Positions 1,376-3,025 of a stretch of 7,923 nucleotides of DNA are shown here, piece by piece. The notes under the pieces are model-generated. The model was not told the DNA's origin, searched no databases, and saw only the letters and a program-made list of their open reading frames with translations. Every line of letters begins with the position of its first letter. The first letter of the stretch is position 1. Origin of the DNA: a virus (lineage: Monodnaviria; Loebvirae; Hofneiviricota; Faserviricetes; Tubulavirales; Inoviridae); the IMG/VR virus record IMGVR_UViG_2651869724_000001, positions 1 to 7,923 of that record; one strand, 5' to 3'. Made by a program: the position numbers and the translations under genes.

Positions 1376-3025
1376 TCAGGACCGAAGAACAATAAAGAAT
1401 GAAAGCATGGAGCCAATCAGCGTCATAATCACCCTGAAAGTGGCCCTGACTTCATCGGTATCAAGCAGCACACAAAAAGTATCCAGTTGATAATCTTTAT
1501 TCCAGATATTGAATGTAAAGACAGGACACTGCCCCCGTGGAATTGTCAGTGAAAAATCACGCGCAGAAGGCCACATATTCCACAATGGAGAAATGAATGA
1601 TGAAGGCTCAGGAGATGAAATATCAGGCGTATCCACTGAAGGTGCAGTGCCAAAGTCATTTGACACAGTCACGTTAACATTTACCGTAGCATTACCTGTT
1701 ACAGTGGTACTGCCAGAACCTGTTCCGACTCCAGCTCCTGTACCGCTACCCGTTCCAGTGCCTGTACCCGTTCCAGTGCCCGTACCCGTTCCAGTGCCTG
1801 TACCCGTACCGCTGCCTGTACCCGTACCGCTGCCTGTACCCGTACCGCTGCCTGTACCCGTACCGCTGCCTGTACCCGTACCGCTGCCTGTACCCGTACC
1901 ACTGCCTGTACCCGTACCACTGCCTGTACCCGTACCACTGCCTGTACCCGTACCACTGCCTGTACCCGTACCGCTGCCCGTACCTCCAACGGGCTTAAAA
2001 CCGGGGTCAATAACAGGAGGGGTATATTTACCTCCAGAATTGCTGGTATCACCACCTGGTGTCGGAGGAATAGCAATAACACCAGATTCTGTAAAACTTG
2101 CAGAATCACCGATGCGGAGATCTACCGTAGAACGATAATTGTCTACGTCAGCAGAGGAATATTTCAATAAAAACGAAGATATCCCGCGATATTCAGAGAG
2201 GCCATCTAATTGTTCAGTCAGCCCGTTAAGAATATCTGCAATATCCTGAGATGCCAGATTATTTCCAGAGAAAGATGGCACGTGGAGAGACGATGAGAAT
2301 GGATTTTCAGTGGTTGCTGCCTCGCAAGTAGAATTACCATCAGAATAAAACAGAACCTGACCGTTATCACAAAAAACAGAATCCTCACTTAACGTTACTG
2401 ACCAGAATACAAACGAACTCTGGGACCAGGAACCTCGAAAATAATAAGCGTAGTAGAAACTGTACCACTCATTATCAACGATACTCTTCGGAGGAGTATA
2501 ATAAGACGACTGAAGCGAGGCTTTATCTTCAGGAGGTAAGCACTGAATAACCCGCGCAGCAGCAGAAAACGGCGAAGTACTGGTAACGTAGCAATTATCA
2601 AACCCGCCATGCCAGGCCTTGACACCCGCACTCATGGCTGGAGTGTAATAAAACGCGTTATAGCCGTTTTTATCTAAAACCAATTTTGCCACCTCCTCAG
2701 CAAAAGGTTTTCCTGCGGCATAAATTCCAAGACTGACTGTAGTTACACCAAGACCGTAAGCCAGAGTACTCCACGACATTGCTGAAGCAGAAATCCCGGC
2801 AGATGCAGCATAATTTGATGCAAAAGACGCTGCCGCACGTGAATATCCTGATAACGTTGCCGAAATAGATGAGGCGCTGGCCCCCATTGCAGATAATTTG
2901 CGATTAATAATACCGGACAATTCAGAAGAAAATGTTGTGGTAGTCAGTGTCGCTGTTTCAGCACAGGCGTGATTTGTTAACAAAACGTACAATAGCGACA
3001 CAGAAATATTTTTCAAAAAACTCAT
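1376..3025 (-). CDS. pIII-like adsorption/host-attachment protein (549 aa) with signal peptide, Gly/Thr/Ser repeat linker and C-terminal membrane anchor
   Basis: N-terminal signal-peptide-like [22 protein letters not shown], long (GTGSGT)n linker, C-terminal hydrophobic [16 protein letters not shown]. Domain layout and gene position match filamentous-phage pIII; no residue-level homology was tested. Confidence 0.65.
1715..1985 (-). repeat. Tandem 18-bp repeat array (about 13 units, near-identical) encoding the (GTGSGT)n/(GT)n linker of the pIII-like protein
   Basis: Plus strand shows cgttccagtgcctgtacc units around 1747-1800, then tacccgtaccgctgcctg units from about 1801 to 1980, differing mainly at one position (gctg versus actg). 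Confidence 0.8.

Follow-up and report, generated by a model that had tools for sequence, protein, structure and literature searches.

An in-frame 18-bp tandem repeat of variable copy number in the pIII-like gene of an Escherichia coli inovirus-type prophage

The window considered here—that is, the whole 7,923-nucleotide stretch of IMG/VR record IMGVR_UViG_2651869724_000001—contains an inovirus-type prophage whose phage genes are read on the minus strand. The longest open reading frame (ORF) of the region encodes a 549-amino-acid (aa) pIII-like protein, and within it lies an array of nearly identical 18-bp units, a variable-number tandem repeat (VNTR) coding for a long Gly-Thr/Ser run whose length differs among Escherichia coli genomes. 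The parts of this gene are as follows (window positions).

1376-3025, minus strand: gene for the 549-aa pIII-like protein (putative adsorption or minor coat protein), with the array inside
2960-3025, minus strand: predicted Sec signal peptide, aa 1-22, recognized by inspection (basic n-region, hydrophobic core, A-x-A-like end), with an AlphaFold2 helix at aa 2-19
1985-2959, minus strand: folded N-terminal region, aa 23-347, presumed to be the receptor-binding part; no known fold matched
1805-1984, minus strand: ten 18-bp GTGSGT units of the 'abf' (AGT) and 'abc' (AGC) types, their numbers varying between strains
1751-1804, minus strand: three 18-bp GTGTGT units of the 'bed'/'aed' types, also varying in copy number
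1709-1750, minus strand: degenerate tail of the Gly-X run, 14 residues, nearly invariant between strains
1379-1708, minus strand: C-terminal domain, aa 440-549, which bears a conserved SPLWNMWP...CPVF...Y...C motif and ends in a hydrophobic helix

Tandem Repeats Finder placed the array at 1747-1984, with a period of 18, 13.2 copies, 96% matches, no indels, and a score of 378, and a repeat search of the window found 15 in-register copies at exactly 18-nt spacing. The encoded run of Gly-X dipeptides extends over aa 348-439, corresponding to positions 1709-1984 on the minus strand, and is in frame with the 549-aa ORF. The original prediction, which was made from the letters alone and placed about 13 near-identical 18-bp units at 1715-1985, was thus essentially right in both number and position. 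Its formula for the linker, (GTGSGT)n, describes 10 of the 13 good units, which differ from one another only at synonymous third positions (AGC/AGT, ACA/ACG); the remaining three encode GTGTGT. Neighbouring good units have 15-18 of 18 bases in common, and the G+C content is 64% in the array versus 44% in the remainder of the gene. The units are therefore arranged as in a coding VNTR—that is, head to tail, at high identity, with a length that is a multiple of three and in register with the ORF. No second comparable repeat was detected in the phage part of the window by either Tandem Repeats Finder or the repeat search.

Two further ORFs overlap the array in other frames.

1509-2138, plus strand: nested antisense ORF (PVPVPL...)
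1699-2109, minus strand: nested out-of-frame ORF (AVVRVQ...)

Both had been called spurious at the outset, and comparison bears this out. They are nested and of low complexity, and the locus of a homologue whose protein is 46% identical (L025) contains nested ORFs of equal length and unrelated sequence, supporting the interpretation of the two as by-products of a stop-free repeat, with low complexity derived from that repeat. The pattern of synonymous sites in the sense frame versus the antisense PVPV frame was uninformative, since the variable bases are third positions in both frames.

Copy number was surveyed by a megablast search for the gene in 5,426 complete E. coli genomes, with all 27 positive loci being taken and every full copy extracted. 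The resulting data set comprises 39 gene copies from 28 sources (the 27 genomes and the window), of which 38 copies come from the fetched loci. In the 27 genomes, the gene is always chromosomal, with an identity of 96.8-99.9% and a length of 1,560-1,704 nt. The arrays were found to span 186-330 nt (62-110 residues), with 11 lengths represented and 25 arrays distinct from one another; no copy departs from the frame, array length is divisible by 6 throughout, and 21 of the 25 arrays fit 18n+6. The flanks, namely 1,041 nt on the N-terminal side and 333 nt on the C-terminal side, never change in length and show no more than 17 substitutions over their 1,374 nt (at most 1.2%), and length variation is confined to the array in all 39 copies. 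Copy number is thus polymorphic among close genomes with conserved flanks. The comparison across related genomes that had been proposed as a check has therefore been made: the number of units is not constant, and linker length varies between strains as had been predicted. A phase-variation locus was ruled out, because every allele is in frame; the ORF is intact throughout, and the array lies wholly inside the coding sequence. The same megablast search returned 83 'places' in the 27 genomes, up to 10 per genome, compared with the 38 full copies in the loci; the remaining places may be partial matches to a paralogous pIII gene or to other GT-repeat DNA.

The internal organization of the arrays was compared after coding them as six-base Gly-X 'dicodons'. 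In this notation, each array begins with a head, 'ac' or a near variant, and continues with abf blocks (GTGTGS with AGT), abc units (AGC), and bed/aed units (GTGTGT), followed by the tail. The head is invariant and the tail nearly so, with 'gbhijkf' present in all lineages except one (JNE070796, which is without the 'g'), and only the interior of the array changes. Invariant ends with a changing interior are the usual picture of a repeat that is homogenized and resized internally.

The tempo of change was gauged against a context of 4,634 nt (pVI, pI, secretin, gene flanks, and 620 nt upstream) compared between genomes. AF34 and AF60, with no context differences, carry the same array and are the only pair in this comparison to share one. 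In all inter-genome pairs separated by one or two substitutions in the 4,634 nt, the arrays differ. The closest pairs with different arrays are the following.

AF34 and cS51a: 1 context substitution; arrays of 186 and 300 nt, a multi-unit difference
E500002 and E400634: 1 context substitution; 258 and 240 nt, one 'abc' unit
E400634 and 100117: 1 context substitution; 240 and 258 nt, one 'bed' unit
JNE21-003 and E700025: 2 context substitutions; 276 and 258 nt, one 'abf' unit
RIVM_C037794 and AST217: 4 context substitutions; 312 nt each, one unit type exchanged

Two differences separate the window from JNE21-003, its nearest relative: an AGT-to-AGC change in one unit and a single-nucleotide difference in a flank. 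Some arrays contain duplications of multi-unit blocks that repeat the array head in the interior, as in '...abedacabcabc...', which suggests unequal crossovers. Array events thus outpace point substitution over about 4.6 kb and are rare on the timescale of a clone. The recent expansion and ongoing change that had been read from the near-identity of the units accordingly hold for phages one or two substitutions apart, which commonly differ by a single unit, but not for very short timescales, on which sibling isolates and most multi-copy genomes keep identical arrays.

The genes around the array-bearing gene, all on the minus strand, bear on what its product may be.

4109-5335, minus strand: Rep_trans replication protein gene
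3335-3643, minus strand: major-coat-like gene (phrog_2186, 'virion structural protein'; phrog_6548, 'major coat protein'), upstream of the 549-aa gene
1071-1358, minus strand: pVI-like minor coat gene (DUF2523; Pfam PF10734, E 2.9e-9; phrog_974), immediately downstream of the 549-aa gene
1-843, minus strand: gene for the pI/Zot assembly ATPase, truncated where the window ends (Pfam Zot PF05707; phrog_197)

A small ssb-like ORF follows the Rep_trans gene ahead of the coat-like ORF, and a 56-aa ORF lies between the latter and the 549-aa gene. The DUF2523 protein is placed by PHROGs with pVI-type minor proteins. In complete genomes, the full Zot/pI gene is present and is followed by a GspD-type secretin, so that the order reads Rep_trans, ssb-like, coat, 56-aa ORF, 549-aa gene, DUF2523/pVI, Zot/pI, and secretin. 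Comparison with M13 showed that this matches the gene order of the Ff phages, with the 549-aa gene in the slot of gene III. In RefSeq, the same 549-aa ORF is annotated as 'hypothetical protein' in the 27 E. coli genomes.

The architecture of the protein is likewise that of a pIII. In an AlphaFold2 model built on a 51-sequence alignment, the N-terminal region is predicted with confidence over aa 30-300 (predicted local distance difference test, pLDDT, up to 95); aa 305-458, which include the array, have a pLDDT below 50 and no secondary structure; and the C-terminal domain is modelled at a pLDDT of 75-84 over aa 474-548, ending in a long helix. This hydrophobic helix, aa 524-548 (window 1382-1456), and the helix at aa 2-19 agree with the signal peptide and C-terminal anchor recognized by inspection of the sequence, and the Gly-rich run of aa 348-439, predicted to be disordered, lies between the N- and C-terminal domains. 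One hydrophobic Gly/Ala-rich stretch in the N-terminal region (aa 83-107; window 2705-2779, minus strand), with a pLDDT below 50, is strongly conserved in the homologues P0002 and P0003 and could be a membrane-active or partner-binding segment.

The C-terminal domain matched 217 representative clusters, always at the extreme C-terminus of proteins of 400-600 aa. Among its relatives, a Salmonella protein (P0004) carries an Ff N1 domain (M13 g3p residues 23-116, E 1.2e-8) and another (P0128) matches M13 g3p at 8.5e-8; furthermore, 1 of 51 family members hits Pfam Phage_Coat_A and one hits a phrog 'attachment protein'. The 549-aa protein itself has no Pfam hit, and thus no Phage_Coat_A (Ff N1/N2-type) domain; these N1/N2 domains define the Ff-like subfamily, not pIII in general. 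The PHROG families that it matches are of unknown function, and a phmmer comparison gave no match to M13 g3p. A profile of the C-terminal domain matched M13 g3p weakly by hmmsearch (E 0.003 at Z=1, that is, for a single target), and the weak profile alignment pairs the C..F..GK.Y...C motif and the anchor with the equivalent position in M13 g3p. A phmmer search of Protein Data Bank (PDB) sequences was set aside, having returned only low-complexity matches to the Gly-rich run. Overall, the assignment of the 549-aa protein to the pIII type is well supported by position and architecture, as a functional analogy rather than a proven homology, and we infer an adsorption role from it. The 'pIII linker' of the original prediction therefore stands with respect to the slot, the disorder, and the C-domain family, whereas direct similarity to M13 g3p is weak and homology is unproven.

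Homologous proteins show that a Gly-rich run at this position is not peculiar to the window. The N-terminal region is 64% identical in P0002 and 46-48% identical in P0003, both homologues of E. coli/Escherichia type. P0003 (46%) is encoded in the gene III position of a second hipA-side prophage, and the same gene order is found around P0003 and P0004. At the P0003 locus (L025), a different array with a 42-bp unit (3.7 copies, 97%) lies at the same position. P0004, P0046, P0131, and P0136 have GT/GS/GD-rich runs of other composition just before the shared C-terminal domain, the paralogue P0276 also has a GT/GS linker, and in 26 of 125 full-length relatives there is a stretch of 20 or more residues with a Gly content of 33% or higher. 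The linker thus recurs as an element of the architecture, and each lineage regenerates it with a repeat of its own, homogenized independently.

In a homologue search with the whole protein, low-complexity matches (TonB, 'per-hexamer repeat', and the like) crowded out the rest, and only P0001-P0004, P0046, and perhaps a few others are true relatives. The profile search of genome contigs, based on a two-sequence alignment, matched 72 stretches, none of which was confirmed. Among 50,697 phage records, there was no match to the phage part of the window by megablast or to the protein by tblastn, and distant blastn returned only a stretch resembling rstR, short rep and zot segments, and one look-alike of the GT repeat. 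The last, on an unannotated tailed-phage contig (OX376640.1 at 15839-16021, Caudovirales sp. ct2KA10), is 183 nt long and 76% identical to the array (window 1737-1919); repeat DNA of this Gly-Thr/Ser kind is thus also present in phages that are not related.

Several further features of the window and of related prophages were recorded. Within gene I/Zot, a second small in-frame tandem repeat, GACGGCGAA in 2.2 copies, lies at window 248-267 on the minus strand, in the protein segment ...SSPSSPS...; in strains 48956, 47258, and E100341, one 9-bp unit of it (window 248-256) is lost, and the Zot gene is 1,050 nt long compared with 1,059. A weaker repeat with a 25-bp period (window 325-385; 2.4 copies, 77% matches, and 17% indels by Tandem Repeats Finder) sits in the A-rich part of gene I coding for a membrane-spanning segment. 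A 71-aa ORF at 5637-5852 on the plus strand hits phrog_2503, and its nucleotide sequence is about 70% identical to rstR of the Vibrio phages CTXphi, pre-CTX, and VAI, a cross-genus DNA similarity that is unusually high for a repressor gene. An ISNCY-family insertion sequence adjoins the prophage at 6427-7923 on the plus strand; it is 99.5% identical to copies on E. coli plasmids, its transposase is divided between two ORFs (6485-7048 and 7048-7923), and in related genomes a frameshifted ISNCY copy lies on the same side of the prophage. No dif site was found in the window at up to three mismatches.

The module of pIII-like, pVI, pI, and secretin genes occurs on at least three replication and integration backbones among the E. 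coli chromosomes examined (L001-L023, L028-L031). The first has Rep_trans and an RstR-like gene and usually sits next to hipA, in the terminus region, in tandem copies; the second has a 668-aa 'replication endonuclease' and an IS110-family transposase and is located at ybiB/hcxB, yahJ/yahK, or ilvI/leuO; and the third, in S21EC, has a different pair of rep and ssb genes. On a Salmonella enterica contig (L026), an ORF of 161 aa that contains a TolA domain (PF06519) is located at 11255-11740, about 1.3 kb past the secretin gene of a prophage whose pIII has an Ff-type N1 (TolA-binding) domain.

These observations are very probably explained by an in-frame VNTR, changed by slippage or unequal recombination, in a length-tolerant disordered linker of pIII type. 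The array would code for a Gly-rich, hydrophilic, disordered tether of about 92 residues between the presumed receptor-binding N-terminal part and the C-terminal domain, which would anchor the tip protein in the membrane and the virion cap. Near-identical six-codon units may mispair at replication, for which rolling-circle single-strand replication would be a natural setting, or may recombine unequally between tandem prophages or replicative forms. Whole units would thereby be gained or lost, and the resulting variants would persist because the frame is always kept and a flexible tether tolerates changes in length, the effect of length on fitness presumably being close to neutral.

Several observations weigh against this explanation or bound it. 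The arrays are identical in five pairs of sibling isolates and in 9 of the 11 genomes with two full copies, and the rate of change is therefore moderate. The only within-genome difference in length, in RIVM_C037166 (240 versus 294 nt), is accompanied by eight flank substitutions; its reading as slippage in place was rejected, the substitutions pointing to two different phages. The neutrality of length is an assumption, and the 62-residue minimum, below which no array falls among the 39 copies, could be a functional lower bound. As a single strand, the array folds no better than shuffled controls (z = -0.14), and a special single-stranded DNA structure as a promoter of or signal for slippage was accordingly rejected; no such structure needs to be invoked. 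With respect to the pIII identity, BLASTP against M13 g3p was not significant, the profile of 149 C-terminal domains aligned with M13 g3p residues 368-419 at an hhalign E of 0.0074 and a probability of 5% in a single comparison, and a Foldseek search of the AlphaFold2 model against PDB gave a best E of 0.96, matching no fold to the N-terminal region and not tying the C-terminal domain to M13 pIII.

Among the alternatives, it is possible, though distinctly the less likely course, that the diversity arose mainly by homologous or unequal recombination between co-resident phages rather than by slippage within a lineage. Tandem prophages are the rule at the hipA-side site, RIVM_C037166 and S21EC each hold two different phages or arrays side by side, the replication modules are mosaic, and the multi-unit blocks that repeat the head resemble the products of unequal crossovers. 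However, the closest pairs of phages are one 18-bp unit apart, which is the signature of stepwise slippage, and 25 mostly unique arrays need events inside the array beyond the reshuffling of a few parents. Both processes could operate together, and they are not distinguishable from sequence alone.

An adaptive origin of the length polymorphism, with the array as a tuning or contingency-like locus and unit number selected for receptor geometry, host range, or evasion of a host or immune factor, is unlikely. Proteins of the g3p type mediate attachment, and the authors of the UPphi study raise this possibility for Gly-rich variants (PMC7307601); in addition, diversity is very high (25 arrays in 39 copies), the shortest array still encodes 62 residues, and the same morphogenesis module travels on more than one kind of backbone for replication and integration. 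No change breaks the frame, though, so that there is no on/off switching, and the variants differ in length but not in the N-terminal domain (at most 1.2% divergence). Furthermore, length has no evident association with backbone or insertion site, and in the IKe precedent, as cited in PMC7307601, a longer region conferred no selective advantage. A stronger form of this idea, and a slightly more doubtful one, is that the array is a selected tuning device supplying tip proteins of varied reach to a module that is exchanged among the three or more backbones. Within a phage population, rapid in-frame gain and loss of units would then let the lineage match varied receptors, or envelopes and capsules of varied depth and thickness, or escape a host factor; the evidence for such tuning consists of the high diversity and the possible lower bound on length.

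The gene might instead encode some other secreted or membrane protein of the prophage, with the repeat as a spacer of unrelated function, which is improbable. The protein has no Pfam hit, its PHROG families have no assigned function, neither BLASTP nor fold comparison links it significantly to M13 g3p, and tblastn was empty in the 50,697 phage records. Against this, the gene III slot is taken by this gene in each of three independent phage contexts, with no alternative candidate of suitable size between the coat gene and pVI, and its product has both a signal peptide and a C-terminal anchor. Its C-domain family, moreover, includes carriers of the Ff g3p N1 domain (P0004, P0128) and members with Phage_Coat_A and 'attachment protein' hits, and it is the equivalent C-terminal motif of M13 g3p to which the profile aligns.

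The behaviour of assemblers at the array, about which the original prediction had advised caution, proved to be a real concern for draft genomes. The protein clusters of this gene (P0001) and of its 64%-identical E. coli paralogue (P0002) consist mostly of 'partial' entries from draft assemblies, with N-terminal fragments stopping 2-9 residues into the array (...PVGGTG, ...GGTGS) and C-terminal fragments starting near its end. Short-read assemblers thus break contigs at the Gly-Thr/Ser array, and the databases present the gene mostly as fragments labelled 'hypothetical protein, partial'. In complete genomes, by comparison, the arrays keep their frame, head, tail, and unit order and agree between tandem copies and between sibling strains, which argues against an artefact. 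Although draft short-read assemblies fail here, leaving many fragment entries, and some 'complete' records are labelled whole genome shotgun, it is very improbable that the copy-number differences reflect collapse or expansion of the repeat during assembly, given 39 of 39 copies in frame with invariant ends and whole 6- or 18-bp steps, identity between tandem copies and in five independently assembled sibling pairs, lengths of 186-330 nt that long reads span easily, and an order of abf, abc, and bed that random collapse would not keep.

With the VNTR in a length-tolerant linker as the preferred explanation, its practical consequences concern typing and annotation. The array is a high-resolution strain marker for the prophage, with nearly every unrelated host in the sample having a unique allele; its hosts, 27 of 5,426 complete E. 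coli genomes, include many human diarrhoeal or clinical isolates. Differences in the length of this gene should not be counted as evidence of different phages or of functional divergence. The result extends the known class of repeat-encoded, length-tolerant linkers from Gly-Gly-Gly-Ser/Glu to Gly-Thr/Ser, and does not open a long-standing question. The literature consulted makes no mention of a GTGSGT array, and a search by RefSeq protein accession found no paper on this phage.

Variation in linker copy number has been published for other filamentous phages, and the present finding, while real, will be unsurprising to a specialist. In the UPphi prophages of E. coli and further Enterobacterales, no gene varies more than that for g3p, with 95 protein variants in 229 genomes, and the variation is mostly in the number of GGGES linker repeats (Shapiro & Putonti, Virus Evol 2020; PMC7307601). 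In IKe, a longer glycine-rich region of g3p arose naturally and gave no selective advantage (Bruno & Bradbury 1997, as cited in PMC7307601). The prophage described here resembles UPphi in having an in-frame linker repeat in an attachment protein and a tandem prophage in the dif/terminus region. However, the unit of the IKe/I2-2-related UPphi is GGGES, whereas that of the window is 18 bp long and encodes GTGSGT or GTGTGT, and the N-terminal region of the window protein is without a Phage_Coat_A domain.

The G1 and G2 spacers of the Ff phages (M13, fd, f1) and that of IKe are likewise flexible, Gly-rich, and encoded by DNA tandem repeats. Indeed, the linkers of M13 g3p consist of a 15-bp unit in 3.9 copies (95%) and in 4.5 copies (90%). 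Unlike the two shorter EGGGS/GGGS linkers of Ff, the present protein has a single Gly-Thr/Ser linker of 62-110 residues, with at least 13 units at 96% identity in the window, and its sequence homology to M13 g3p is weak. With the YpfPhi/CUS-1 group of dif-integrating enterobacterial filamentous prophages (PMC4266046), the likeness is one of lifestyle and layout: an RstR-like repressor, Rep and morphogenesis modules, a Zot-type assembly gene, insertion in tandem in the terminus region, and hosts belonging to E. coli.

The dynamics of the array are close to those of the coding minisatellites and VNTRs of bacterial surface proteins, with in-frame units, stepwise change, degenerate invariant ends, and a homogenized variable interior, the difference being that the repeat encodes a linker of a phage virion protein rather than part of a cellular adhesin and does not produce phase variation by frame-shifting. 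What differs from the published g3p linkers is the Gly-Thr/Ser chemistry, the single long linker, and the unmatched N-terminal domain, in a phage group that has so far not been described.

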